The notes under the pieces: generated by a model | The model's database searches: none | The model's input: the letters and a program-made list of their open reading frames with translations, nothing else | Told to the model about the DNA's origin: nothing | Shown: positions 169 through 63,773 of the stretch, in pieces | Numbering within the stretch: position 1 is the stretch's first letter | How the letters are laid out: the number at the start of each line of letters is the position of its first letter | Source of the DNA: Escherichia coli | Lineage (GTDB): Bacteria; Pseudomonadota; Gammaproteobacteria; Enterobacterales; Enterobacteriaceae | Reading direction: 5' to 3' (one strand) | Length of the DNA: 64,000 bases | NCBI RefSeq assembly: GCF_048403405.1 | Contig: NZ_CP183129.1 | Position numbers and translations under genes: made by a program

Positions 169-245
<77 letters not shown>

Positions 246-279
246 TCACCGTACTGCTTTTACTTCATCAAATTTTGAT

Positions 280-356
<77 letters not shown>

Positions 357-389
357 TCACCGTACTGCTTTACTTCATCAAATTTTAAT

Positions 390-466
<77 letters not shown>

Positions 467-1847: not shown

Positions 1848-2654
1848 ATGTCTGTGGTAATTAGTGATGCATGGCGTCAGCGTTTTGGTGGCACAGCGCG
1901 TCTGTATGGTGAAAAAGCGTTGCAACTGTTTGCTGACGCGCATATTTGTGTGGTCGGTATTGGCGGTGTCGGTTCCTGGGCGGCGGAAGCGCTGGCGCGC
2001 ACAGGGATTGGCGCAATCACGCTTATCGATATGGATGATGTGTGCGTCACCAATACCAATCGGCAAATTCATGCCCTGCGCGATAACGTTGGGCTGGCAA
2101 AAGCGGAAGTTATGGCGGAGCGTATTCGCCAGATTAACCCGGAGTGCCGTGTAACGGTGGTGGATGATTTCGTGACGCCGGATAACGTAGCGCAGTATAT
2201 GAGCGTGGGTTATTCGTACGTGATTGATGCCATTGATAGTGTACGGCCCAAAGCGGCGCTGATTGCTTATTGTCGGCGCAATAAAATCCCACTGGTCACA
2301 ACCGGTGGCGCGGGTGGGCAGATTGACCCGACGCAGATTCAGGTTACCGATCTGGCGAAAACGATTCAGGACCCGCTGGCGGCGAAGTTGCGTGAGCGCC
2401 TGAAAAGCGATTTTGGCATAGTGAAAAACAGTAAAGGTAAGCTCGGCGTGGATTGCGTGTTCTCTACCGAAGCATTGGTGTACCCGCAGTCAGACGGTAC
2501 GGTGTGTGCTATGAAAGCCACGGCGGAAGGGCCGAAGCGGATGGATTGTGCATCTGGATTTGGCGCGGCGACGATGGTGACCGCCACCTTTGGTTTTGTT
2601 GCGGTTTCTCATGCGCTGAAGAAGATGATGGCGAAAGCGGCCCGTCAGGGGTAA
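1848..2654 (+). CDS. tcdA: tRNA threonylcarbamoyladenosine dehydratase (E1-like, ThiF/MoeB family)
   Basis: 268 aa; Rossmann motif VVGIGGVGSW; matches TcdA (CsdL/YgdL); ATG start with RBS. Confidence 0.9.
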   Translation: MSVVISDAWRQRFGGTARLYGEKALQLFADAHICVVGIGGVGSWAAEALARTGIGAITLIDMDDVCVTNTNRQIHALRDNVGLAKAEVMAERIRQINPECRVTVVDDFVTPDNVAQYMSVGYSYVIDAIDSVRPKAALIAYCRRNKIPLVTTGGAGGQIDPTQIQVTDLAKTIQDPLAAKLRERLKSDFGIVKNSKGKLGVDCVFSTEALVYPQSDGTVCAMKATAEGPKRMDCASGFGAATMVTATFGFVAVSHALKKMMAKAARQG

Positions 2655-2660
2655 ACAATC

Positions 2661-2694
2661 AGGTCGGATGCGACGCGAACGTCTTATCCGACCT
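2661..2694. repeat. REP (repetitive extragenic palindromic) element between convergent tcdA and csdE
   Basis: aggtcggatgcgacgcgaacgtcttatccgacct, typical REP consensus with inverted arms. Confidence 0.7.
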
Positions 2695-2704
2695 GGTGCA
2701 GTGC

Positions 2705-3148
2705 TTAAACCTGCTTCGCCACAGCGATAATCGCCTCGCTTAACGCATTCAACCCCTGGCTGCGTGAGGCGCTAAGCTGCGCACGCAATCCCAGCTCATC
2801 AAACAATGCCAGCGGCGACTGTGCCTGCAATTCGGCGGCGGTTTTCCCCTCAACGGCAGTCAACAACACCGCCAGCAGGCCGCGCACAATGCGCCCTTCG
2901 CTGTCGCCAAAGAAGTGCATTTTACCGTTTTCAGCCACGGTATATCCCAGCCAGACGCGGTTTTCGCATCCGGCAATCTCTTTAGCCTGCGCTTTTAACT
3001 CGTCTGGCAAAGCCGGAAGCTGTTTCCCCAGCATGATCAACTGGCGATATTTATCTTCCCATTGCGTCAACGGTGCGAAGGTATTGCGTAACGTTTCTGC
3101 GGTTACGGTTGTGCCGAACGGATGTCCGGCGAATTGCGGGTTTGTCAT
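2705..3148 (-). CDS. csdE: Sulfur acceptor protein CsdE (SufE-like)
   Basis: 147 aa [14 protein letters not shown]..., matches CsdE; start overlaps csdA stop. Confidence 0.92.
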
Positions 3149-4353
3149 TAATCCACCAATAATTCCAGCGCGCGGTCAACGGCATTCACCAGCGCATCCA
3201 CATCACTCTTTGTATTATATGGCGCAAAAGAGGCGCGCAGTGTGCCGGTTACGCCTAATTCTGCCAGTAGCGGCTGAGCGCAATGCTGCCCGGCGCGCAG
3301 GGCAATACCGTACTCCGCCAGCAGCGTCACCATATCGCTGTGATGAACGCCAGCAAAATCAAAGGCCAGCAGGCTGGAATCCTGGCAGCGAAATGAGCGG
3401 AAGCCAGGACGTTTTGCCAGCGCATCTTCCGCCAGCGTTGCTAAGCTACGGCTCCAGCTTTCTGCCTGGTTGATATCGTAATCTGCCAGCCATTCCAGCG
3501 CCGCGCTTAATCCTATGACACCAGCGACATTTGGCGTTCCGGCTTCCAGTTTCCACGGCGCAGATTGAGTCGTGAAGCCGTCAAAACTCACTTCGTGAAT
3601 CATTTTGCCGCCACCCAGCCAGGGTGACATCGCTTCCAGCAGTTCTGATTTGCCATACAGCACGCCGATACCCGTCGGGCCATACAGTTTGTGACCAGAG
3701 AAAGCATAGAAATCAATATCCAGTTGCTGAACATCTGCGGGGACATGCACCGCCCCCTGAGCACCATCAACCATCACCACCATCCCGGCTGAATGAGCAA
3801 AGGTAATCGCTCGCGCCAGATCCGGGCAACCGCCAGTGACGTTCGACATTTGTCCCAGAGCAAGAATTCGACTACGAGGTGTGATCAGTTCTGGCAACAA
3901 ATCGACATCCGGCAGTCGCTGCGCATTAAGCGGCAATTTCACCACTTTGGCTCCAGTTTGTTGGGCGACCATCAGCCAGGGGACGAGGTTGGCGTGGTGT
4001 TCTGCCACGCTGACAATAATCTCATCGCCCGGTTGCAGACGTGGACGCGCATAGCATTGTGCCACCATGTTGATGGATTCAGTGGTGCCGCGCGTCCAGA
4101 CGATAGTTTTGTCATCTGGTGCATTCAGTAATTGCGCCACTTTCTCTCGTGCAGCTTCATAACGCGCGGTCAGGCGTTGGGCTTCGGCAAACTGGCTGCG
4201 ATGGACGTTTCCGGCGCTCAGGCTGTAAAACTGTCGGGTGGCTTCAACCACGGCTTCAGGTTTAAGCGCGGTCGCGGCGCTGTCGAGATAGACGCCCGCA
4301 TCCTGAAGTGCGGGAAACTGGGCGCGAAACTGTGCGGGATTAAAAACGTTCAT
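3148..4353 (-). CDS. csdA: Cysteine desulfurase / sulfinate desulfinase CsdA (PLP-dependent)
   Basis: 401 aa starting [16 protein letters not shown]; PLP-lysine motif SGHKLYGP; start set at the internal ATG (4353) preceded by RBS gaggag rather than the TTG track start at 4389. Confidence 0.9.
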
Positions 4354-4544
4354 GGTACTCCTCGGCTTGATGAACCGATCGTGACGCAAAATTCACTTTG
4401 ATACAAGGAGAGTGCTAACCATCAGAATTATCTGGATATCCTGGCGAAGCCGCGTAAGTAACATATGCTGAATAGTGTTAGGCGTTAATTTTAGCCTGTT
4501 AATCAATACTATTAAGATTTATTAATCGCTTTAAGGAGAAGATG

Positions 4545-4772
4545 ATGAAAAAGACTGCCGCAATTATTTCTGCCTGTATGCTGACTTTTGCCCTGAGCGC
4601 CTGTTCCGGTTCGAACTATGTGATGCACACCAATGACGGACGTACCATCGTCTCTGACGGCAAACCACAGACTGATAACGATACCGGTATGATTTCGTAT
4701 AAAGACGCTAATGGCAACAAACAGCAGATCAACCGTACTGACGTGAAAGAGATGGTCGAACTGGATCAGTAA
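4545..4772 (+). CDS. ygdI: Small lipoprotein YgdI (DUF903)
   Basis: 75 aa [22 protein letters not shown]... with lipobox; RBS aaggag 6 nt upstream of the second ATG. Confidence 0.85.
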
Positions 4773-4788
4773 TTCGCGATCGCAAGGT

Positions 4789-4994
4789 AAAAAAAAGCAC
4801 CGCAATTAGGCGGTGCTACATTAATCACTATGGACAGACAGGGTAAATGTACAGGAAGTGAAAAAAGGTAGCTTTGCTACCATGGTCTGAATCGCAGACC
4901 AATTGCAAACACAACAACACAACATCACAACCGTAAGCCAAAAGTTCACCAGAACACGCATTCCGATAAAACTTTTCGTTCCGGCTCAGGAAGT
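4789..4994 (-). ncRNA. gcvB: GcvB small regulatory RNA (Hfq-dependent regulator of amino-acid and peptide transporter mRNAs)
   Basis: Minus strand reads ACTTCCTGAGCCGGAACGAAAAGTTTTATCGG...GTTGTGATGTTGTGTTGTTGTGTTTG...AGCACCGCCTAATTGCGGTGCTTTTTTTT, matching E. coli gcvB including the GU-rich R1 region and terminator; divergent from gcvA. Confidence 0.9.
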
Positions 4995-5122
4995 GCCGCC
5001 ACTATAGGTATTTGCTGGTAGAAGCTCAACGGACAATTTATAATGGCTCAGATTAAAAAAACTAATAGGTTACACAGTGTGATCTAATTGTTAAATTCAT
5101 TTAACATCAAAGTTTAAAAGCC

Positions 5123-6040
5123 ATGTCTAAACGATTACCACCGCTAAATGCCTTACGAGTTTTTGATGCCGCAGCACGCCATTTAAGTTTCACTCGCGCA
5201 GCAGAAGAGCTTTTTGTGACCCAGGCCGCAGTAAGTCATCAAATCAAGTCTCTTGAGGATTTTCTGGGGCTAAAACTGTTCCGCCGCCGTAATCGTTCAC
5301 TCCTGCTGACCGAGGAAGGTCAAAGCTATTTCCTCGATATCAAAGAGATATTTTCGCAATTAACCGAAGCGACGCGTAAACTCCAGGCCCGTAGCGCCAA
5401 GGGGGCGTTGACGGTCAGTTTACTCCCCAGTTTCGCCATTCATTGGTTGGTTCCGCGACTTTCCAGCTTTAATTCAGCTTATCCGGGAATTGACGTTCGA
5501 ATCCAGGCGGTTGATCGTCAGGAAGATAAGCTGGCGGATGATGTTGATGTGGCGATATTTTATGGTCGGGGCAACTGGCCGGGGCTACGGGTGGAAAAAC
5601 TTTACGCCGAATATTTATTGCCGGTGTGTTCGCCGCTACTGCTGACTGGCGAAAAACCCTTGAAGACCCCGGAAGATCTGGCTAAACATACGTTATTACA
5701 TGATGCGTCACGCCGTGACTGGCAGACATATACTCGCCAATTGGGGTTAAATCATATCAACGTTCAGCAAGGGCCAATTTTTAGCCATAGCGCCATGGTG
5801 CTGCAAGCGGCTATTCACGGGCAGGGAGTGGCGCTGGCAAATAACGTGATGGCGCAATCTGAAATCGAGGCCGGACGTCTTGTTTGCCCGTTTAATGATG
5901 TTCTGGTCAGTAAAAATGCTTTTTATCTGGTTTGTCATGACAGTCAGGCAGAACTGGGTAAAATAGCCGCCTTTCGTCAATGGATCCTGGCGAAAGCCGC
6001 TGCTGAACAAGAAAAATTCCGCTTTCGTTATGAACAATAA
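5123..6040 (+). CDS. gcvA: LysR-family transcriptional regulator of the glycine cleavage system
   Basis: 305 aa MSKRLPPLNALRVFDAAARHLSFTRAAEEL... matches GcvA; N-terminal HTH. Confidence 0.95.
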   Translation: MSKRLPPLNALRVFDAAARHLSFTRAAEELFVTQAAVSHQIKSLEDFLGLKLFRRRNRSLLLTEEGQSYFLDIKEIFSQLTEATRKLQARSAKGALTVSLLPSFAIHWLVPRLSSFNSAYPGIDVRIQAVDRQEDKLADDVDVAIFYGRGNWPGLRVEKLYAEYLLPVCSPLLLTGEKPLKTPEDLAKHTLLHDASRRDWQTYTRQLGLNHINVQQGPIFSHSAMVLQAAIHGQGVALANNVMAQSEIEAGRLVCPFNDVLVSKNAFYLVCHDSQAELGKIAAFRQWILAKAAAEQEKFRFRYEQ

Positions 6041-6058
6041 TTTACGTAGGGTACGACC

Positions 6059-6454
6059 ATGACCAGCCGTTTTATGCTGATTTTTGCCGCCATTAGCGGC
6101 TTCATTTTTGTGGCTCTGGGCGCTTTTGGCGCGCATGTGTTAAGTAAAACCATGGGGGCCGTTGAGATGGGCTGGATCCAGACCGGTCTCGAATACCAGG
6201 CGTTCCACACGCTGGCGATCTTAGGTCTGGCGGTGGCAATGCAGCGTCGCATCAGTATCTGGTTTTACTGGAGTAGCGTTTTCCTCGCGTTAGGCACGGT
6301 GCTGTTCAGCGGCAGCCTTTATTGCCTGGCGCTGTCCCATCTGCGTTTGTGGGCATTTGTCACACCGGTTGGCGGCGTGAGCTTCCTCGCGGGCTGGGCG
6401 TTAATGTTAGTTGGTGCTATCCGTTTAAAGCGCAAGGGCGTAAGTCATGAATAA
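6059..6454 (+). CDS. ygdD: Inner membrane protein YgdD (DUF423)
   Basis: 131 aa, four hydrophobic segments; position and sequence match YgdD. Confidence 0.85.
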
Positions 6455-7547
6455 GGTTGTATTGCTGTGCCGTCCGGGCTTTGAAAAAGAGTGCGCCGCA
6501 GAAATTACCGATAAAGCCGGCCAGCGGGAAATTTTCGGTTTTGCCCGCGTGAAAGAGAATGCGGGTTATGTCATTTATGAATGTTATCAACCTGATGATG
6601 GCGATAAGTTAATCCGTGAGCTGCCGTTCAGTTCATTAATTTTTGCCCGCCAGTGGTTTGTGGTGGGGGAACTCCTGCAGCATTTGCCGCCAGAAGATCG
6701 TATTACTCCCATTGTCGGCATGTTACAGGGCGTAGTAGAGAAGGGCGGTGAACTGCGTGTTGAAGTTGCCGATACCAACGAAAGCAAAGAGTTGCTGAAA
6801 TTCTGCCGTAAATTCACCGTGCCGCTACGCGCTGCCTTGCGCGATGCGGGTGTGCTGGCGAACTATGAAACGCCGAAGCGTCCGGTTGTACATGTATTCT
6901 TTATTGCACCAGGCTGCTGCTATACCGGTTACTCATACAGCAACAATAATTCGCTGTTCTATATGGGCATTCCGCGCCTGAAATTTCCGGCAGATGCGCC
7001 GAGTCGTTCCACGCTTAAACTGGAAGAGGCATTTCATGTGTTTATTCCTGCGGATGAGTGGGATGAACGCCTGGCGAACGGGATGTGGGCGGTGGATTTA
7101 GGCGCTTGCCCAGGCGGCTGGACCTACCAACTGGTGAAGCGCAACATGTGGGTTTATTCCGTCGACAACGGCCCGATGGCGCAAAGTCTGATGGATACCG
7201 GACAGGTGACGTGGCTGCGGGAAGACGGTTTCAAATTCCGTCCGACACGCAGCAATATCTCCTGGATGGTATGCGATATGGTTGAAAAACCGGCGAAAGT
7301 TGCGGCATTGATGGCGCAGTGGCTGGTTAATGGCTGGTGCCGTGAAACCATTTTCAACCTCAAACTGCCGATGAAAAAACGCTACGAAGAAGTGTCACAC
7401 AATCTGGCGTATATTCAGGCACAGCTTGATGAACATGGCATAAATGCTCAGATTCAGGCGCGGCAGTTGTATCACGATCGCGAAGAAGTGACGGTGCACG
7501 TCCGCCGTATCTGGGCTGCGGTGGGTGGTCGTCGCGACGAGCGATAA
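6447..7547 (+). CDS. rlmM: 23S rRNA (cytidine2498-2'-O)-methyltransferase
   Basis: 366 aa [20 protein letters not shown]... matches RlmM (YgdE); overlaps ygdD by 8 nt. Confidence 0.92.
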
Positions 7548-7590
7548 CAGGCAAGGCCGGGGCGTCGTCTCCGGCCTGCTACCCTTTCCG

Positions 7591-8322
7591 TCAGGCTGTT
7601 ACCAAAGAAGTTGCAACCTGGCGCTCATCAGAAATAATGTGCGTTACCTCATCCAGATGCCCGATGCGGGCTTCCCCTGAACGATTAAATTTACTTTTAT
7701 CAATCAATAACAACGATTGCGCGGCGCGTTTTAATAGCATTGATTTGTAATCAGCGTTGATGGCATTGGAGTCCCACAGTGCGCCGCTGCTATCGATCCC
7801 TTCACAAGAAAAAATAAACAGATCGATTTCCAGCGATTTAAGTTGGGAAATCAGCGAGGGATTGACGTAACAGCCATATTTGCGCTCAAGTGTGCCGCCG
7901 GAACTGATTAGTTGAATGCGTTCGCGTTTACCGAGTTCATGGCAAATCGGATGGCTATTGGTGAAGACCTGGATGTTGATGTCAGGCAACTGGCGTGCCA
8001 GATACCAGCAGGTTGAACTGGCGTCTAAGGCTATCACCATCCCTTCTTCAATCCACGCGAGCGCCTCGCGCGCGATATCTGCTTTATGCGCATAATGGCT
8101 TTTCAGCCGGATGTGAAAGGGATCGCCACTGTCTTGATTTTGACGGTGGATATATTTAGCGCGCCCATGATTGCGCAGAATTTTACCCTGCGTCTGTAAT
8201 TCATTGAGATCGCGACGAATGGTTTCTTTACTGACCTTTAGCTGTTCAGAAAGAGCTTCCGTGGTCAGGCTGGTATGGTTCAGCAGCAGGTCGACTATCG
8301 CTTGCTGGCGTGCCGCTTTCAT
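7591..8322 (-). CDS. fucR: DeoR-family activator of the fucose regulon
   Basis: Matches FucR; start set at the ATG (8322, MKAARQQAIV..., 243 aa) rather than the upstream GTG at 8331; N-terminal HTH, C-terminal sugar-phosphate binding domain. Confidence 0.88.
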   Translation of the reverse strand: MKAARQQAIVDLLLNHTSLTTEALSEQLKVSKETIRRDLNELQTQGKILRNHGRAKYIHRQNQDSGDPFHIRLKSHYAHKADIAREALAWIEEGMVIALDASSTCWYLARQLPDINIQVFTNSHPICHELGKRERIQLISSGGTLERKYGCYVNPSLISQLKSLEIDLFIFSCEGIDSSGALWDSNAINADYKSMLLKRAAQSLLLIDKSKFNRSGEARIGHLDEVTHIISDERQVATSLVTA

Positions 8323-8379
8323 ATTTTTCACCCCATCATTCGATAACCGCCCGCGTCATGCGGGCGTACCGGTATGAGA

Positions 8380-8802
8380 TTACGGTGTTACCCCTTTTTT
8401 TAAAAGAATATTCCCGTACTTCGCTCGTTCGCCTGTGATAACGATCGCAAAGGCTTTTTGCGCCCGTTCATAAAACGCAAAACGATTGATGCGGATGATG
8501 TCAGGACACGGGGCTTGTAGTGAAAGCGCATTACGGTAACGTCGTTCTACTTCAGGATCGAGAGTGTCACCTTCTACCGCCGCCATCATCACCAGCGGCG
8601 GTGCATAACTGTCCAGTTCAAATAACGGGATAATCGCCTGGAGCAAGTCGCTCACCAACAGGCCATCAGCGCGGATCACCTGCGGTCCCATCGAATGGGC
8701 GGGAAAGTGAGCATCGGAAAAAATAATTTCATCTCCATGTCCCATCTCTGCCAGCACTTTCAATAGTTCGGGAGAAATTAACGGCGAAATTGTTTTCAGC
8801 AT
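8380..8802 (-). CDS. fucU: L-fucose mutarotase
   Basis: 140 aa [26 protein letters not shown]... matches FucU (RbsD/FucU family). Confidence 0.93.
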
Positions 8803-22457: not shown

Positions 22458-23003
22458 GTGGACGATTTGACCGCACAAGCCCTGAAAGATTTTACTGCAC
22501 GCTACTGCGATGCGTGGCATGAAGAGCATAAAAGCTGGCCGTTGAGTGAGGAACTGTACGGCGTTCCTTCACCGTGCATTATTTCAACCACCGAAGATGC
22601 CGTATACTGGCAACCCCAGCCGTTTACCGGGGAACAAAATGTAAACGCGGTTGAACGCGCTTTTGATCTTGTGATACAACCCACAATTCATACCTTTTAT
22701 ACGACTCAGTTTGCCGGGGATATGCACGCGCAGTTTGGCGATATCAAACTGACATTGCTGCAAACCTGGAGTGAAGACGACTTCCGTCGGGTGCAGGAAA
22801 ATCTGATTGGTCATCTGGTGACTCAGAAAAGGCTAAAATTGCCGCCCACGCTATTTATCGCGACGCTGGAAGAAGAGTTAGAGGTCATCTCGGTGTGTAA
22901 TCTCTCCGGTGAAGTGTGTAAAGAGACGCTGGGAACACGTAAACGGACGCATTTAGCCTCAAATCTTGCGGAATTCCTTAATCAACTTAAGCCTCTTCTG
23001 TAA
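22458..23003 (+). CDS. syd: SecY-interacting protein Syd
   Basis: 181 aa, GTG start, matches Syd. Confidence 0.9.
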
Positions 23004-23021
23004 TCCAAATACCCCATCTGG

Positions 23022-23039
23022 TTGTGAGAGATCTCTTAC
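23022..23039. promoter_or_regulatory. UvrY (SirA) response-regulator binding site upstream of csrB
   Basis: 18-bp near-perfect inverted repeat TGTGAGAGATCTCTTACA centred about 183 bp upstream of the csrB 5' end; matches the inverted repeat reported for UvrY/SirA at csrB; the cognate kinase gene barA is in this window. Confidence 0.7.
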
Positions 23040-23213
23040 AGACTCTGTAGGAGATCGCCAGGAAATAAGCGAATACTTAAAAAGATAAGAATCGTTATTT
23101 TCATTTAAAATCAATATATTGCTTGTCAATTCTTAACTTTCATATGAAGTTTTCCTTAAGGCATTGTCTGTAAGCGCCTTGTAAGACTTCGCGAAAAAGA
23201 CGATTCTATCTTC

Positions 23214-23579
23214 GTCGACAGGGAGTCAGACAACGAAGTGAACATCAGGATGATGACACTTCTGAAGGACACACCAGGATGGTGTTTCAGGGAAAGGCTT
23301 CTGGATGAAGCGAAGAGGATGACGCAGGACGCGTTAAAGGACACCTCCAGGATGGAGAATGAGAACCGGTCAGGATGATTCGGTGGGTCAGGAAGGCCAG
23401 GGACACTTCAGGATGAAGTATCACATCGGGGTGGTGTGAGCAGGAAGCAATAGTTCAGGATGAACGATTGGCCGCAAGGCCAGAGGAAAAGTTGTCAAGG
23501 ATGAGCAGGGAGCAACAAAAGTAGCTGGAATGCTGCGAAACGAACCGGGAGCACTGTGAATACAGTGCTCCCTTTTTTT
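23214..23579 (+). ncRNA. csrB: CsrB sRNA (CsrA-sequestering RNA)
   Basis: Begins GTCGACAGGGAGTCAGACAACGAAG; at least 8 CAGGATG/AGGATG motifs plus further GGA motifs; ends with hairpin gggagcactgtgaatacagtgctccc plus 7-nt T run; located between syd and yqcC as in E. coli. Confidence 0.92.
23547..23579 (+). terminator. csrB intrinsic terminator
   Basis: Perfect hairpin gggagcactgt / acagtgctccc followed by TTTTTTT. Confidence 0.85.
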
Positions 23580-23624
23580 ATTCCTGCTATCCTTCGCGGC
23601 AGTTTTTCTTATTGAGGTTGCTTT

Positions 23625-23954
23625 ATGACCACTCATGACCGCGTTCGTCTCCAGCTGCAGGCGCTTGAAGCATTACTGCGTGAACATCAGCACTGGCAAA
23701 ACGATGAACCCCAGCCGCATCAATTTAACAGTACCCAACCGTTCTTTATGGACACCATGGAACCACTGGAGTGGTTGCAGTGGGTGCTGATCCCGCGAAT
23801 GCACGATTTGTTAGATAACAACCAGCCGTTACCGGGCGCTTTTGCCGTTGCACCCTATTATGAAATGGTGCTGGCGACGGACCACCCGCAACGCGCGCTT
23901 ATTCTGGCTGAGCTGGAAAAACTGGATGCTCTTTTTGCGGATGATGCGAGCTAA
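23625..23954 (+). CDS. yqcC: YqcC (DUF446) protein
   Basis: 109 aa MTTHDRVRLQLQALEALLREHQHWQ... matches YqcC; stop overlaps truC start (TAATG). Confidence 0.88.
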   Translation: MTTHDRVRLQLQALEALLREHQHWQNDEPQPHQFNSTQPFFMDTMEPLEWLQWVLIPRMHDLLDNNQPLPGAFAVAPYYEMVLATDHPQRALILAELEKLDALFADDAS

Positions 23955-29863: not shown

Positions 29864-32620
29864 TTACCCGAGAATTTTGCTGGCTTCGCGCGCGACATTA
29901 TCCATCTCGTCCAACAGTTCCAGCAGCTCCGGCTCCAAATCTTCTTCTTTAGTACCGCTACGTAGCTGTTGTTCGATCAGCTGGCAGAGATTCTTCATAC
30001 GCGGCACACCGCTATAGCCGCAACTGCCATGCAGTTTATGAATCAAATCAACCAGGCCTTCCGGGTTTTCTCCAACCAGCTGTTCCTCAACTTTGTTGCG
30101 AACTTCAGGCAGGAAATCGAGTAACATTTGCAGCATATCGCGCGCTAAATCGGTTTTTCCTGCTGCCTGGCGTAGTGCCAGTTGCCAGTCGAGGGTCGCA
30201 TTCGGGTTCACCACAATTTCGTTGACTTCGGGCGTCACGACGCGAGACGAAATACCGCTGCCAGGCTTGTAGCGCAACAACAAATTATGCAATCGCTCTT
30301 CTTCAATCGGTTTCGCCAGATAATCGCTCATCCCTGCGCCAAGCAGCTTCTCTTTTTGCCCGGCCATTGCATGCGCCGTTACCGCGATAACTGGCGTTTG
30401 TTGCTGATGGGGGAGCTGGTGGATGAGTTCGCAGGCCCGAATGCCGTCCATGTCCGGCATTTGAATATCCATTAAGATCAAATCGAACGGCATCTGTTTC
30501 GCCCGTTCAACCGCCTGATGCCCGCTATCGCAAAGTTCCACATGTTGCACCATATCTTCCAGCAATGCGCCGATAAGTTTCAGGTTAGCGGGGTTGTCAT
30601 CAACCGCCATGACTGTCATTGCCAGCTTACTTTCATCGGTTACAGGCAAAAGCGTGTTTTGTTTGTGATGACAAAATTCCGTCAGGGCAGGTAACAGGCG
30701 CGTAGGTGTTAATGGTTTCAGCAGACACGCGCCGATACCATCTTGCTTAAGTTTTTCAGCATTGACTTGTGCATGGCAAGGAAGTGCCAGCATCAGAAAA
30801 TCGGTCATCGATACCGCTTTCGCTAATCGCTCATGTTGCATTGTTAGCGGCTCGCGGAAGGTCACCGCGATGCCTAACAACATCATGTCGTAATGCGCGG
30901 GAGGCAGCGCGGAGAACGTTGGGCTATAAACCACTTCCAGCGGCGTTTCACTTAAAATATCCAGCGTGCATTGCGCTGCTGCGGAGTTTGGTTCGACATA
31001 GGCCAGGCGCTTGCCGGCTAGGCACTGGGTGGATGGCCCTTCGATAATAATGTTCGGGTTCAGATCGAGATTAATGTGGAACCAGAAAGTTGAACCGCGA
31101 TTCGGCTGGCTATGGAACGAAATATCGCCGCCCATTTCATTAACCAGTTTTTGTGTAATCACCAGCCCCAGCCCGGTGCCACCATGACGGCGGGAAATAC
31201 TGGCATCAGCCTGTCGGAAGGCCTGGAATAAGCGCGATTGATCGCGTTCAGGAATACCAATGCCGGTATCCCGAATCTGCACTTCAATCTGCACTTTAGT
31301 ATTACTCAGAGCACGTTTTTCTACCAGAATATCAATGTTGCCATTCTCGGTGAATTTAATTGCATTCCCCACCAGGTTAGTGATGATTTGCTGTAATCGC
31401 AGTGGGTCGCCGATCACGTTATCGGGCACGTCGCTCTTAATATTGAGCGTCAGTTCCAACCCTTTATCGTGAGAAGAATGTGCCAGCAGGGTAACGACTT
31501 CATCCAGCGTGCTGCGTAGTGGGAATGGAATACTTTCCAGAATCAGCTTACCTGCTTCCAGTTTCGAGAAGTCGAGAACATCATTAATAATTGCCAGCAA
31601 ATTATTTGCCGAACGTTCAATCGTATTCAGGTGATCGCGCTGCGTTGGTGTTAATTCTGTTTTCAGCGTCAGGCGGGTAAAGCCAATAACACCATTCAGT
31701 GGTGTACGCAGCTCGTGTGACATATTTGCAAGAAACTCGGATTTAATACGCGCCGCTTCCTGGGCGCGCTTTTTCGCCAGATCCAACTCAACGTTCTGAA
31801 TTTCCATCTGCTCCAGCGTTTCACGCAGATCGGACGTCGCCTGGTCGATATTGTGCTGCATCTCTTCGTGATAAGCAGCCAGCGACATTGCCATCGAGTT
31901 GATACCGTTTTTCAGCATATCCAGCTCGCCGAGCATAAATCCTTCCACACGGCTGTCGAGTTGCCCGCGACGGATGCGGTCGACGGTATTCACCATATTG
32001 CGAATCGGACCGGTTACATCGCGCATTAAGCGCCAGCCAAAAATAAGCGCAATACCGATACAAAACAGCATCATCACGCTGGAAATAAAGATCTCTTTAT
32101 ATTGCTGCAAGCGAACCGATTTAAGATCCAGCTCCAGCGCAATATATCCCAGCATATTTTGACTATTTTTGGCATCGCTACTGGGCGATTCGTCGGGGGA
32201 GTAACTCTCAGAAATAATCGGCGTGCGGAGGATCATAATATCGCCGTCACGAGTGACAGTGAGCTGGCGAGGAAACGGCACGTTGCTGCCGAGCTGCATT
32301 GATGAAGGATCAAGATGAAAATTGGAGGTGACAAAGAGTCGGTTATTTTCATCATAAACCGAAATCGCGCGAACAATATCGGAATGGCGACGATGCAGTA
32401 CGCTTATTAACTGACCGATAGATTCGCGATTTTGCAGGCTCATGCCATATTCAGTAGAAACTGCAAGCGGCTCAATAATGCTGGCTCCGGCATCTTCCAG
32501 TTGACGCTGCAAGTCGTTATAGCGATGCACAACGAAAAAGATACTCAGCAATAAACCAATAAGGACGGTCGGTGCCAGGATCAGAATCATCATGCGTGCG
32601 CGCAGGCTGTAGTTGGTCAT
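29864..32620 (-). CDS. barA: Hybrid sensor histidine kinase BarA (HAMP-HisKA-HATPase-REC-HPt)
   Basis: 918 aa [24 protein letters not shown]...; H-box SHELRTPLN; matches BarA. Confidence 0.95.
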
Positions 32621-43069: not shown

Positions 43070-43270
43070 TAATTTTTCGTTGGAGTGAAAATTATTGCGG
43101 TGAAATTTGGTAGATTTTAGTTTGAATAGAGTTATTTTAAATATTTATCTTTTTAATCAATGGATTAAATGCTCTTTAACATAATGGATGTGTTGTTTGT
43201 GTGATCCTGTAAAGTTGGTAGATTGTGACTGGCTTAAAAAATCATTAATTAATAATAGGTTATGTTTAGA
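43070..43270 (+). promoter_or_regulatory. CRISPR leader (AT-rich, promoter and spacer-acquisition signals)
   Basis: About 200 bp AT-rich sequence ending ...aatcattaattaataataggttatgtttaga directly abutting the first repeat; degenerate repeats lie at the opposite end of the array, fixing polarity; left boundary approximate. Confidence 0.55.
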
Positions 43271-44031
43271 GTGTTCCCCGCGCCAGCGGGGATAAACCGC
43301 GTTCAGCGTTGCTGGGCTGCGCAATGGACTGGTGTTCCCCGCGCCAGCGGGGATAAACCGCGGAGTTTTCACGGAACGCACAGCGAATTATGGTGTTCCC
43401 CGCGCCAGCGGGGATAAACCGCCGATAAATTTTCGCCCCGTTTCCAGCGCCGCGTGTTCCCCGCGCCAGCGGGGATAAACCGTTCAAACTGTAGGGATCG
43501 GCAATGGTGCCGAAGTGTTCCCCGCGCCAGCGGGGATAAACCGGGGCATTAGAATAACTTAAATGGAAAAAGAAAGTGTTCCCCGCGCCAGCGGGGATAA
43601 ACCGTCAGCCAGCACATAATTTTTATAGTCAGTATTGTGTTCCCCGCGCCAGCGGGGATAAACCGAAAGAGGTTATCGAGCGATATAACGCGTCCATGTG
43701 TTCCCCGCGCCAGCGGGGATAAACCGGTGCCTGGCGTCCATCTATTCACATGCCGCGCGTGTTCCCCGCGCCAGCGGGGATAAACCGTATTGGCGACGAT
43801 GGCATACCAGGACTACTCCGTGTTCCCCGCGCCAGCGGGGATAAACCGGCTCAGCGTCTGCTCTGGTGCCTCGCCCGTGAGTGTTCCCCGCGCCAGCGGG
43901 GATAAACCGGACCGTTACGGGCGCGTTCTTGGACTTGTTGAGTGTTCCCCACATCAGCGGGGATAAACCGGACACAGAGCGCCGCTATAGCGCCTATGCC
44001 AAGAGTTTCCCGCACCAGCGGGAATAAACCA
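43271..44031 (+). CRISPR. Type I-E CRISPR array: 13 repeats of 29 bp, 12 spacers of 32 bp (the queE-ygcE array of E. coli)
   Basis: Repeat GTGTTCCCCGCGCCAGCGGGGATAAACCG at 43271, 43332, 43393, 43454, 43515, 43576, 43637, 43698, 43759, 43820, 43881, then degenerate copies at 43942 (gtgttccccacatcagcggggataaaccg) and 44003 (gagtttcccgcaccagcgggaataaacca); exact 61-bp period. Confidence 0.97.
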
Positions 44032-44500
44032 CCATATAACCCGTTATCTCTTTCTCAAGTTTTTATATTAGCTGTACTTGTAATAAGCAACATATCCACG
44101 TAACACCTCATGTTCAAAATAGTTCTCCATGTCAGAGAAGTTCACAATTATCGATACAAAAAATTAAATTTAATCAAAGTGTTATTTGTATGATTCTTAA
44201 ATCGTTAAGAAATTTTAATCTATTATTTTTTTAATATTGAATTAATGCCTGTTAATTTTTTCTTTAGAATAACAGTGTGTTTTTTAAGCTTGTTATTCAT
44301 TGATTAAGTAATAAATCTGGAAGTTTGTCTTTGTTTTGAGGCTAATGAGTGGTTTTACATAACCGTCTCTATAGGCTGTTGATGAATAGTTCTTATGAAT
44401 AAAGATATCCAGTTCATACTTTAAATGAAAATTGATAAAGTACGGTTTGCGTTGTCTTTTATTCTAAAGACATCGAGTGTAGTTAATATTCCTTGTAAAA

Positions 44501-44623
44501 ACAGGGATAAACCGAACTAGTTAAAGTTTTTATTATGTTCCCTGCATCAGCGGGGATAAACCGGACTTGTTATCATTTTTTAAGTTGTCGAACTTATGTT
44601 CCCCACGTCAGCGGGGATAACCA
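44501..44623 (+). CRISPR. Decayed satellite CRISPR array (truncated repeat, two degenerate repeats, one 32-bp spacer)
   Basis: Partial repeat cagggataaaccg (ends 44514), degenerate repeats atgttccctgcatcagcggggataaaccg (44535-44563) and atgttccccacgtcagcggggataacc (44596-44623) separated by a 32-bp spacer; preceded by about 470 bp of AT-rich leader-like sequence. Confidence 0.8.
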
Positions 44624-44669
44624 TTCAGGTATGTTCAGGCCGGGCAGTTTCCCGCCCGGTCTTCCTCAC

Positions 44670-60517: not shown

Positions 60518-60725
60518 GCGAGCAGCATTCCGGCATTTAAAGGTGAACATCGCAGGGAGAATTAACAGGTATAGAATGGAGTTGGGTGCTTGAGGCTGTC
60601 TGGCGTTAAGCATTCGCGAGGTTCCAGATGGACAAAAGCCCCAGGCGATATTTCTATCAACCTGAGGCCAGCGTTCGAACCTAAGCAATTCGAATGTTAG
60701 TCTCTTCTTTGCAGGGAGGCAAGAC

Positions 60726-60878
60726 ATGCTGACAAAATATGCCCTTGTGGCAATCATCGTACTGTGTTGTACAGTACTGGGATTCACGCTGATGGTAGGC
60801 GACTCGTTGTGTGAGTTGAGTATCAGAGAACGTGGTATGGAGTTTAAGGCAGTTCTCGCTTACGAATCGAAGAAGTAG
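60726..60878 (+). CDS. Hok-family type I toxin (50-aa small membrane protein), part of a hok/sok-like locus
   Basis: [53 protein letters not shown]: N-terminal TM helix plus conserved Hok motif DSLCE...R...[11 protein letters not shown]; below the 60-aa cutoff of the ORF track; followed by hairpin cgcgggg gtaaaa ccccgcg (60885-60904) and a T run; K-12 carries a hok/sok-type locus (sokX) at this position. Confidence 0.8.
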
Positions 60879-61115: not shown

Positions 61116-63773
61116 GTGACTTTCTTTGATTTCTGGGGAAAAACCCGACGTGGCGAGAAAGAGGGTGGTGACGACTATCACCTTCTTTGCTGGCATTCGC
61201 TGGATGTAGCCGCGATGGGCTATTTAATGGTTAAAAGCAATTGCTTCGGGCTGGCTGACTATTTTCGTCAACTAGGTTTCGCTGATACGGAGCAGGCAGC
61301 ACAATTTTTCGCCTGGTTGCTGTGCTGGCACGATACTGGAAAATTTGCCCGCTCTTTTCAGCAACTTTACCTGCACCCGCAACTCAAGGTTCCGGAAAGC
61401 TCTAGAAAAAATTACGAAAAAATCTCTCATTCAACGCTGGGTTACTGGTTGTGGCACCATTATTTAAGTGAATGCGAAGAATTGCTTCCTTCATCTTCAC
61501 TCTCTCCGCGCAAACTTAAACGGGTGATAGAGATGTGGATGCCCATGACTACCGGGCATCATGGTCGCCCGCCTGACCGTATGGATGAACTGGATAATTT
61601 TCTGCCTGAAGACAAAGCCGCCGCGCGAGATTTTCTCCTTGTAATCAAGGCACTGTTTCCTCTCATCGAGATCCCCGCATTCTGGGATGATGACGATGGC
61701 GTTGAACTTTTAAAACAACTTTCCTGGTATATCTCTGCAACTGTCGTACTTGCAGACTGGACGGGATCGTCAACGCGATTTTTTCCACGCGTCGCGCAGG
61801 CAATGGATATTGAAGATTACTGGCAGAAGGCTTTAGTTCAGGCTCAAAACGCATTAACCGTCTTTCCTCCAAAAGCACAAACCGCGCCTTTCACCGGAAT
61901 TAATACGCTGTTTCCTTTTATTGAGCACCCGACACCGTTACAGCAAAAGGTGCTGGATCTGGATATCAGCCAGCCTGGGCCACAGTTATTTATTCTGGAG
62001 GATGTGACTGGCGCAGGTAAAACAGAAGCGGCGCTTATCCTGGCCCACAGGTTGATGGCTGCGGGGAAAGCACAGGGTTTGTTTTTTGGCCTGCCAACAA
62101 TGGCAACGGCCAATGCCATGTACGATCGGCTGGTAAAAACCTGGCTTGCTTTCTATTCGCCAGAATCCCGCCCCAGCCTGGTGCTGGCACACAGTGCCCG
62201 CACATTAATGGACCGCTTTAATGAATCACTCTGGTCCGGTGATTTAGTCGGGTCAGAAGAACCGGATGAACAAGCGTTCAGTCAGGGATGTGCGGCCTGG
62301 TTTGCCGACAGTAACAAGAAGGCGTTGCTGGCTGAAATTGGCGTCGGCACGCTGGATCAGGCGATGATGGCGGTGATGCCGTTTAAACATAATAATCTGC
62401 GGCTTCTGGGACTGAGTAACAAAATCCTGCTGGCTGATGAGATCCATGCCTGTGACGCTTACATGTCGTGCATTCTTGAAGGATTGATTGAGCGGCAGGC
62501 GCGTGGCGGAAACAGCGTTATTTTGCTTTCTGCCACGTTATCTCAACAGCAGCGCGACAAACTCGTTGCTGCCTTTGCGCGTGGTGCAGAGGGTCAGCAA
62601 GAAGCTCCGTTCCTGGAAAAGGATGATTACCCCTGGCTGACGCACGTTACGAAATCGGATGTGCATTCACACCGGGTAGCAACGCGCAAAGACGTTGAGC
62701 GTAGCGTGAGCGTGGGTTGGCTTCATAGCGAACAAGAGTGTATTGCGCGTATCGAATCGGCGGTAAGTCAGGGGAAATGCATCGCCTGGATCCGGAATTC
62801 TGTCGATGATGCTATTAAAGTTCATCGTCAGTTGCTTGCCCGCGGCGTCATTCCTGCTTCCAGCCTTTCTCTGTTTCATAGCCGCTTTGCTTTTAGCGAT
62901 CGCCAGCGAATTGAAACGGAAACGCTGGCACGCTTCGGTAAAGAAGATAGCTCACAGCGTGCCGGAAAAGTCCTCATTTGTACTCAGGTCTTAGAGTCGA
63001 GCGTTGATTGCGATATGGACGAAATGATTTCCGACCTGGCCCCTGTTGATTTGCTGATCCAGCGAGCGGGGCGATTACAGCGGCATATCCGCGATATTAA
63101 TGGTCAGTTAAAGCGTGACGGAAAAGACGAGCGTTCTCCTCCTGAATTGCTGATTCTGGCCCCCGTCTGGGACGACGCTCCAGGTGACGAATGGTTCGGC
63201 AGTGCCATGCGTAACAGTGCATATGTCTATCCCGATCATGGACGAATCTGGCTGACGCAGCGTGTACTGCGTGAGCAAGGCGCGATTCAAATGCCACACG
63301 CAGCCCGCCTTCTTATTGAATCAGTCTACGGTGAGGACGTGGTAATGCCGGAAGGATTTGCCCGCAGCGAGCAGGAACAAGTGGGCAAATATTACTGCGA
63401 TCGCGCAATGGCTAAAAAGTTTGTGCTGAACTTCAGGCCCGGCTATGCCGCCAATATCAACGATTACCTCCCGGAAAAGCTGTCGACACGTCTGGCTGAG
63501 GAGTCTGTTTCCCTGTGGCTGGCTACCTGTATTGACGGTGTGGTGAAGCCTTATGCCACCGGTGCTCACGCATGGGAAATGAGCGTTGTCAGAGTGCGTC
63601 GAAGCTGGTGGAAAAAACATTGCGATGAGTTTTCTTTACTGGAAGGGGAAGCGTTCAGGCAGTGGTGCGTTGAACAGCGGCAAGATCCGGAGATGGCAAA
63701 TGTGATTTTAGTTACCGATGACGAAAGTTGCGGGTATTCGGCTAGGGAGGGATTGATTGGTAAGGTTGATTGA
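61116..63773 (+). CDS. cas3: Cas3 (type I-E CRISPR-associated HD nuclease / SF2 helicase), non-K-12 allele
   Basis: 885 aa; HD motifs (HSLDVAA, WHDTGKF), helicase motif I TGAGKTEA, motif II DEIH, motif III SATL, motif VI QRAGRLQRH; GTG start; sits directly downstream of cysH as in E. coli; N-terminal sequence differs from the K-12 Cas3 I recall (MEPFKYICHYWGKS...). Confidence 0.9.
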   Translation: MTFFDFWGKTRRGEKEGGDDYHLLCWHSLDVAAMGYLMVKSNCFGLADYFRQLGFADTEQAAQFFAWLLCWHDTGKFARSFQQLYLHPQLKVPESSRKNYEKISHSTLGYWLWHHYLSECEELLPSSSLSPRKLKRVIEMWMPMTTGHHGRPPDRMDELDNFLPEDKAAARDFLLVIKALFPLIEIPAFWDDDDGVELLKQLSWYISATVVLADWTGSSTRFFPRVAQAMDIEDYWQKALVQAQNALTVFPPKAQTAPFTGINTLFPFIEHPTPLQQKVLDLDISQPGPQLFILEDVTGAGKTEAALILAHRLMAAGKAQGLFFGLPTMATANAMYDRLVKTWLAFYSPESRPSLVLAHSARTLMDRFNESLWSGDLVGSEEPDEQAFSQGCAAWFADSNKKALLAEIGVGTLDQAMMAVMPFKHNNLRLLGLSNKILLADEIHACDAYMSCILEGLIERQARGGNSVILLSATLSQQQRDKLVAAFARGAEGQQEAPFLEKDDYPWLTHVTKSDVHSHRVATRKDVERSVSVGWLHSEQECIARIESAVSQGKCIAWIRNSVDDAIKVHRQLLARGVIPASSLSLFHSRFAFSDRQRIETETLARFGKEDSSQRAGKVLICTQVLESSVDCDMDEMISDLAPVDLLIQRAGRLQRHIRDINGQLKRDGKDERSPPELLILAPVWDDAPGDEWFGSAMRNSAYVYPDHGRIWLTQRVLREQGAIQMPHAARLLIESVYGEDVVMPEGFARSEQEQVGKYYCDRAMAKKFVLNFRPGYAANINDYLPEKLSTRLAEESVSLWLATCIDGVVKPYATGAHAWEMSVVRVRRSWWKKHCDEFSLLEGEAFRQWCVEQRQDPEMANVILVTDDESCGYSAREGLIGKVD

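Follow-up and report, generated by a model that had tools for sequence, protein, structure and literature searches.

The 64,000-nucleotide stretch of Escherichia coli DNA analyzed here, referred to below as the window, contains csrB, which encodes a small RNA (sRNA), together with a near-perfect inverted repeat upstream of it and the sensor kinase gene barA (Table 1). The gene order, queF-syd-csrB-yqcC-truC-yqcA-gudPXD-barA-rlmD-relA, was the same as in E. coli K-12, in the orientation opposite to that of the K-12 reference. Because neither uvrY nor csrA lies in the window, only part of the pathway is encoded in it.

Table 1. Features of the csrB locus and its neighborhood in the window
Feature	Position	Strand	Description and basis
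syd (SecY-interacting protein)	22458-23003	+	Upstream flank; Pfam Syd, 244.5 bits; synteny
Predicted UvrY-P binding site, TGTGAGAGATCTCTTACA	23023-23040	.	18-bp near-perfect inverted repeat; same sequence and position as the site footprinted in K-12
Extra half-site-like element, TGTAGGAGA	23046-23054	+	5 bp downstream of the inverted repeat; read from sequence
Putative IHF site, AATCAATATATTG (consensus WATCAANNNNTTR)	23109-23121	+	-105 to -93, between UvrY box and promoter
Two direct TGTAAG hexamers	23169-23174, 23180-23185	+	At -45 and -34, 11 bp apart
Likely -35 hexamer, TTGTAA	23179-23184	+	Inferred; overlapped by the proximal TGTAAG
Likely -10 hexamer, GATTCT	23202-23207	+	-12 to -7, 17 bp after TTGTAA; weak, non-consensus
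csrB	23214-23582	+	369-nt CsrA-sequestering sRNA; Rfam RF00018, K-12 identity, GGA/AGGATG load, hairpin covariation
csrB intrinsic terminator	23547-23579	+	11-bp stem (7 G-C pairs), 4-nt loop, T7; terminator scan
yqcC (DUF446)	23625-23954	+	Downstream flank; Pfam DUF446, 119.7 bits; synteny
barA	29864-32620	-	Tripartite sensor histidine kinase, cognate kinase of UvrY; 918-aa ORF

barA and its linkage to csrB

The original prediction had placed barA about 6 kb from csrB, and the boundaries that it gave for the gene were exact. The two genes are convergent, with 6.28 kb between their 3' ends. The encoded protein was identical to K-12 BarA (b2786) at 918 of 918 amino acids, and its Pfam domains (sCache_4, HAMP, HisKA, HATPase_c, Response_reg, and Hpt) all scored above the cut-offs, making up the complete tripartite architecture (HisKA/HATPase, receiver, and Hpt) together with a periplasmic Cache domain and a HAMP domain. 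The domain order is that of K-12 BarA, from which the protein does not differ at all, and in K-12 too barA lies past the gud operon and is convergent with csrB.

Convergent linkage of csrB and barA, with a variable gap, was common to loci from Escherichia, Enterobacter, Kluyvera, and Cedecea (L045, L010, L017, L059, and L087). For example, in Escherichia albertii (L045, positions 2516-7553) no more than about 1.7 kb separates the two genes, which leaves no room for gudPXD, whereas with these genes the gap in the window is 6.3 kb. The possibility that the proximity of the two genes reflects functional clustering was considered and rejected because ordinary core-genome synteny explains the linkage across Enterobacterales genera equally well. 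No BarA-level match was found in the flanks fetched for Vibrio and Photobacterium loci, in which the matches had only 30-42% identity over partial lengths.

Identity and extent of csrB

A scan of the whole window with Rfam models yielded a match to CsrB (RF00018) at 23223-23582 on the plus strand (382.9 bits; E value, 2e-111; gathering threshold, 71 bits). The match was full length, covering model positions 1-356 of 356, and no non-canonical pairs were flagged. We set the csrB +1 at 23214, the base that aligns with the 5' end of K-12 csrB. The K-12 MG1655 counterpart (b4408; NC_000913.3, 2924156-2924524, minus strand) is a 369-nt noncoding RNA gene that is likewise flanked by syd and yqcC. Rather than divergence, direct alignment of the two genes revealed identity at 367 of 369 bases (99.5%), with 2 substitutions, and the wider segment at 23001-23626 was 99% identical to that of K-12. 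Gene length, the UvrY box, the extra half-site, the IHF consensus, the promoter hexamers, the terminator, and all eight AGGATG motifs are also common to both strains. The covariance model, the K-12 identity, and the synteny thus agree with the original identification of csrB. The interval originally assigned to the locus, 23022-23579, needs only minor correction: its start is one base before the first base of the repeat, and its end is the last T of the terminator's T run, whereas the end equivalent to that of K-12 csrB is 23582.

The Csr/Rsm RNA families have a common architecture of GGA-bearing hairpins and belong to a single Rfam clan (CL00106), and the RNA might therefore be another member of this group, such as csrC or a duplicated paralog, rather than the csrB ortholog. 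In E. coli csrC encodes a second CsrA-sequestering sRNA, with the same mechanism and the same activator as csrB. We consider this alternative exceedingly improbable. The best match within the clan was CsrB over its full length, the near-identity to b4408 is accompanied by the same flanking genes, and the csrB region is single copy in nearly all E. coli genomes. Furthermore, csrC is shorter, is found at another locus, and is absent from the window, and its repeat has a different sequence, TGTGAGACATTGCCGATA (PMC4682653). The csrC inverted repeat is also weaker, and csrC has no IHF dependence (PMC4682653). The RNA encoded in the window is the csrB ortholog itself, already known, and not simply a member of the CsrB family.

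The two substitutions are at 23265 (A in the window, C in K-12) and at 23553 in the terminator stem (A in the window, G in K-12), where a G-U pair in K-12 is an A-U pair in the window. When 23 further Enterobacterales sequences were aligned, the window proved to have the common base at both positions, and K-12 was the odd one out. Because the bases found in the window are shared with E. albertii, Escherichia whittamii, and other genera, K-12 has the derived state at both sites. Upstream of the RNA there are five single-nucleotide differences from K-12, all within 23115-23149. They make up five of the eight differences found over the 626-bp csrB region and are confined to 35 bp in the vicinity of the IHF consensus and immediately past it. 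Each falls at an unconserved or N position, and the idea that this cluster near the putative IHF site is a functional variant was therefore rejected.

Of 5426 complete E. coli genomes, 5425 had a match to the 601-bp csrB region, which was nearly always single copy. One genome had no match and 22 had coverage below 80%; one match was on a plasmid, and some genomes had matches in two places. These missing, partial, or extra matches could be csrB deletions, disruptions, or duplications. The closest complete genome found was that of strain 4621 (NZ_CP103479.1), with 99.987% identity over the first 23 kb.

Motifs and structure of the CsrB RNA

At least eight AGGATG motifs plus further GGA sites had been predicted for csrB. 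The gene contains exactly 8 AGGATG, versus 0.13 per 369 nt predicted from the density on the plus strand of the window, where the motif occurs only 22 times with the 8 in csrB included. The RNA has 22 GGA, where about 5.2 would be expected, and CAGGA[ACU]G was matched 9 times. The predicted fold of the 369-nt RNA had a free energy of -119.9 kcal/mol, with a z-score of -4.3 relative to shuffled sequences. When GGA motifs in the predicted stem-loops were counted, 9 of 22 (minimum free energy structure) to 12 of 22 (centroid structure) were in hairpin loops. All 11 of the GGA-presenting hairpins in the Rfam CsrB consensus were intact in the window RNA, as was the terminator.

When csrB sequences from 25 Enterobacterales were aligned and the Rfam CsrB structure was projected onto them, 95.0% of alignment cells formed standard pairs, versus 35-48% when the partners were slid by one to three columns. 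Both sides had changed in 23 of the 54 pairs of the structure, and none of 500 shuffles reached the observed values. The terminator helix (helix 12) was paired in 100% of cases, with three pairs changed on both sides. These results support the conclusion that the CsrB hairpins are upheld by covariation among Enterobacterales, and the compensatory substitutions in the hairpin stems indicate selection on RNA structure.

Four open reading frames of 45-71 amino acids overlap csrB (23156-23344, minus strand; 23238-23378, plus strand; 23287-23424, minus strand; and 23421-23636, minus strand). Their mechanical existence allows the alternative that the locus encodes one or more small proteins, instead of or besides a noncoding RNA. 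However, none of the four had a Pfam match, and no coding sequence over csrB is annotated in K-12 or in the PGAP-annotated strain, in agreement with the original view that these frames are spurious. In addition, relatives differ by frequent 1- to 2-nt indels that would disrupt every reading frame in the csrB region, and the compensatory changes in the stems point to selection on the RNA rather than on a protein. A coding function therefore has almost no chance of being correct.

K-12 CsrB is established to bind and sequester CsrA. With only 2 differences in 369 nt between the two RNAs, CsrB of the strain studied here would be expected to do the same.

The UvrY box and the csrB promoter region

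The inverted repeat TGTGAGAGATCTCTTACA occurs once in the window, and none was expected from 100 dinucleotide-preserving shuffles. It is self-complementary at 16 of 18 positions (2 mismatches on the opposite strand) and has the form TGTRAG-N6-CTTACA. In K-12 an inverted repeat of identical sequence, "centered at -183/-182," is bound by phosphorylated UvrY (UvrY-P) (Zere et al. 2015, PMC4682653). It was the only site that UvrY-P footprinted in vitro with DNase I and the strongest target in ChIP-exo, and UvrY binding to it in vivo was BarA dependent, being abolished by deletion of barA (PMC4682653). The center of the repeat in the window is 182.5 bp upstream of the csrB +1. The "about 183 bp upstream" of the original prediction is thus correct as a center-to-+1 distance but not edge to edge, with the end of the repeat 173 bp before +1; the end is 183 bp before the first position of the Rfam model. 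The identity to the K-12 site in sequence and position, which bears out the earlier designation of this element as a UvrY box, suggests that UvrY-P binds at 23023-23040. The 50 bp around the repeat are single copy in E. coli genomes, 4378 of which matched at 99% identity or more.

The half-site-like element TGTAGGAGA repeats the left arm of the inverted repeat at a distance of 23 bp. The same element, 5 bp downstream of the repeat, has also been described for K-12 (PMC4682653). It is part of TGTnnGAGATCG (23046-23057), whose positions were 80-100% conserved in 51 Enterobacterales sequences. Among 56 Enterobacterales loci, 37 had TGTRAG at an offset of +23; among 56 other loci, 15 had it at +22 or +23. 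The 18-mer, its center, the half-site, and the placement of the putative IHF site in the window are the same as those of the TGTAAGN6CTTACA-type UvrY/SirA/GacA box (Zere et al. 2015, PMC4682653).

In K-12 csrB expression is IHF dependent, and a putative IHF site is located between the upstream and the promoter-proximal regions of UvrY crosslinking (PMC4682653). The published site probably corresponds to the 13-mer AATCAATATATTG, a perfect match to WATCAANNNNTTR, but the window has 8 such matches in total versus 2.9 expected, and the motif alone is thus weak evidence. In the conservation profile of the 51 Enterobacterales sequences the AATCAA and TT positions of this site were conserved, and the N positions varied, a pattern that favors the assignment. 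Conservation of the intergenic region was low overall, with sharp islands at TGTnnGAGATCG, at AATCAA..TT, at TTGTAAG (23179-23185, 60-100% conserved), and at GATTCTAT (23202-23209, the likely -10 region).

A promoter scan detected no sigma-70 consensus promoter in 22950-23650, which fits an activator-dependent promoter. For this reason the promoter hexamers in Table 1 were deduced from spacing and conservation; the -10 assignment came from the spacing to +1 and from 70-80% conservation.

Of 56 Enterobacterales loci, 32 had the proximal TGTAAG hexamer at an identical offset, versus 1 of 56 others, and it occurred in none of the control intervals. TGTAAG is not a signal across the window as a whole, in which 19 hexamers were found and 21 were expected; it clusters only locally, at the csrB promoter. 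Both hexamers lie in the region from -56 to +25 that is crosslinked near the promoter in ChIP-exo of K-12, for which neither an inverted repeat nor a footprint in vitro was found (Zere et al., PMC4682653). One conceivable explanation, which we regard as rather unlikely, is that the TGTAAG half-sites at -45 and -34 are contacted directly by UvrY-P once bending by IHF delivers it to the promoter. If so, such direct contact would explain the second, promoter-proximal crosslink. However, the proximal hexamer overlaps the likely -35 element, and its conservation may reflect promoter function alone; the single case among 56 loci from other taxa also speaks against this explanation.

Distribution of the UvrY box among species

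A scan for the exact 18-mer in GTDB representatives, with each species represented by one genome, returned at least 120 loci. Enterobacterales, Vibrio, Photobacterium, Enterovibrio, and Shewanella, along with a few other taxa, contributed the loci listed, and several Vibrio genomes had two or three copies. To quantify GGA-rich neighbors, AGGA was counted on the strand running outward from each copy, in the 500 nt at a distance of 100-600 bp. Among the matches listed, 97 of the 103 exact copies with complete flanks (94%) had at least 8 AGGA beside them, versus about 1-2 in control flanks. The 18-mer had the same orientation relative to the RNA gene as in the window at 69 of these loci and was flipped at 28 (28 of 97 among the matches listed; for example, L005, L006, L011, L022, L047, and L049). 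The occurrence of both orientations of this slightly asymmetric sequence (TGTGAG...CTTACA) indicates that its G/A asymmetry carries no directional information. The spacing between the repeat's center and the aligned +1 had a median of 182.5 bp and was 170.5-184.5 bp in 49 of 51 Enterobacterales sequences.

An Rfam CsrB RNA adjoined the repeat in 10 of 15 diverse loci tested, and no CsrB match was obtained at the other 5. One of the latter, the Shewanella locus L029, has a GGA-rich flank with 17 AGGA and was probably missed by the Rfam model. Exact copies in three metagenome-assembled genomes (MAGs), from Hahellaceae, Kangiellaceae, and Pseudomonadales, and in Vibrio sp. 14G-20 (L031, L074, L076, and L085) had neither a GGA-rich neighbor nor an Rfam CsrB match in their flanks. 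These copies could be due to chance, could be other UvrY/GacA targets, or could accompany very divergent sRNAs. Separately, the flank of the Vibrio breoganii locus L005 contained a group II intron (7925-8687; RF00029 and RF02012) about 3.5 kb from the csrB-family gene.

The copies without a GGA-rich neighbor, and the start of the repeat only 20 bp after the syd stop codon, are what might suggest that the 18-bp repeat is incidental to csrB, as a chance palindrome, a 3' element of syd, or the site of another regulator. The probability of this is, in our judgment, close to nil. No 18-mer of this kind is expected by chance, and 94% of the exact copies listed, from more than 100 genomes, have a GGA-rich RNA gene beside them; both orientations occur, and the spacing is conserved. 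The repeat is not a syd terminator because no T run follows it. Moreover, the exact sequence is footprinted by UvrY-P in K-12, and binding in vivo is lost upon barA deletion (PMC4682653). The repeat is therefore best regarded as the UvrY box of csrB.

Other features of the window

The window contains several further features. A GcvB sRNA gene (4789-4994, minus strand; full-length RF00022 match, 199 bits) and gcvA (5123-6040, plus strand) are divergent, as in K-12. Three tandem tRNA-Met genes about 111 bp apart (169-466, minus strand; 61.4 bits each with Rfam) lie upstream of mltA, a position that matches the K-12 metZ-metW-metV cluster. A sok antitoxin RNA (60584-60741, plus strand; RF01794, 111.7 bits) adjoins a Hok/Gef family gene between cysH and cas3, and the two form a locus of the chromosomal hok/sok type.

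A type I-E-like CRISPR array at 43270-44039, downstream of queE, has 13 repeats (GTGTTCCCCGCGCCAGCGGGGATAAACCG) at 61-bp spacing and appears to be one unit (61 bp) shorter than the array of strain 4621. Two degenerate repeats were found about 500 bp beyond the main array (44534-44632). Where strain 4621 is annotated with cas3 as a frameshifted pseudogene, the window has an uninterrupted 885-aa open reading frame (61116-63773, plus strand), and thus cas3 may be intact in this strain.

Proposed regulatory mechanism

The BarA-UvrY-Csr pathway is established: BarA phosphorylates UvrY, and CsrB sequesters CsrA dimers through its GGA motifs. By analogy, BarA encoded in the window would autophosphorylate and pass the phosphate via its receiver and Hpt domains to UvrY. 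UvrY-P would then bind the 18-bp repeat centered at -182.5, and IHF, probably acting at 23109-23121, would bend the intervening DNA and bring UvrY-P to a weak sigma-70 promoter (TTGTAA, 17 bp, GATTCT). Transcription would start at about 23214 and stop at the intrinsic terminator. The resulting 369-nt RNA would present 22 GGA, about half of them in short hairpin loops, and would titrate CsrA dimers from their mRNA targets. For the strain studied here, phosphotransfer, binding, DNA bending, and CsrA sequestration are all attributed on the strength of the literature.

The analysis established the identity, position, conservation, and structure of the DNA and RNA elements, as well as the identity of BarA, and found no substantive evidence against the reading of the region as csrB with its UvrY box and barA. 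The region is almost certainly the chromosomal csrB locus of an E. coli strain. The BarA-UvrY-CsrB circuit seen here is the one known from textbooks, and the E. coli chromosome is an ordinary one: all of the elements match the published description of K-12.

Implications

The discovery value of the csrB locus is small, and its practical value lies in annotation. The PGAP RefSeq record that was inspected has no feature for csrB or gcvB. Because the open reading frames over csrB are spurious and this record lacks a csrB feature, an open reading frame track displays only noise at the locus, and scans that rely on such tracks will keep flagging it. The cross-species scan provides an independent, purely computational confirmation, and it indicates that in Enterobacterales, Vibrionales, and Shewanella the exact 18-mer marks Csr-type sRNA genes with high specificity.
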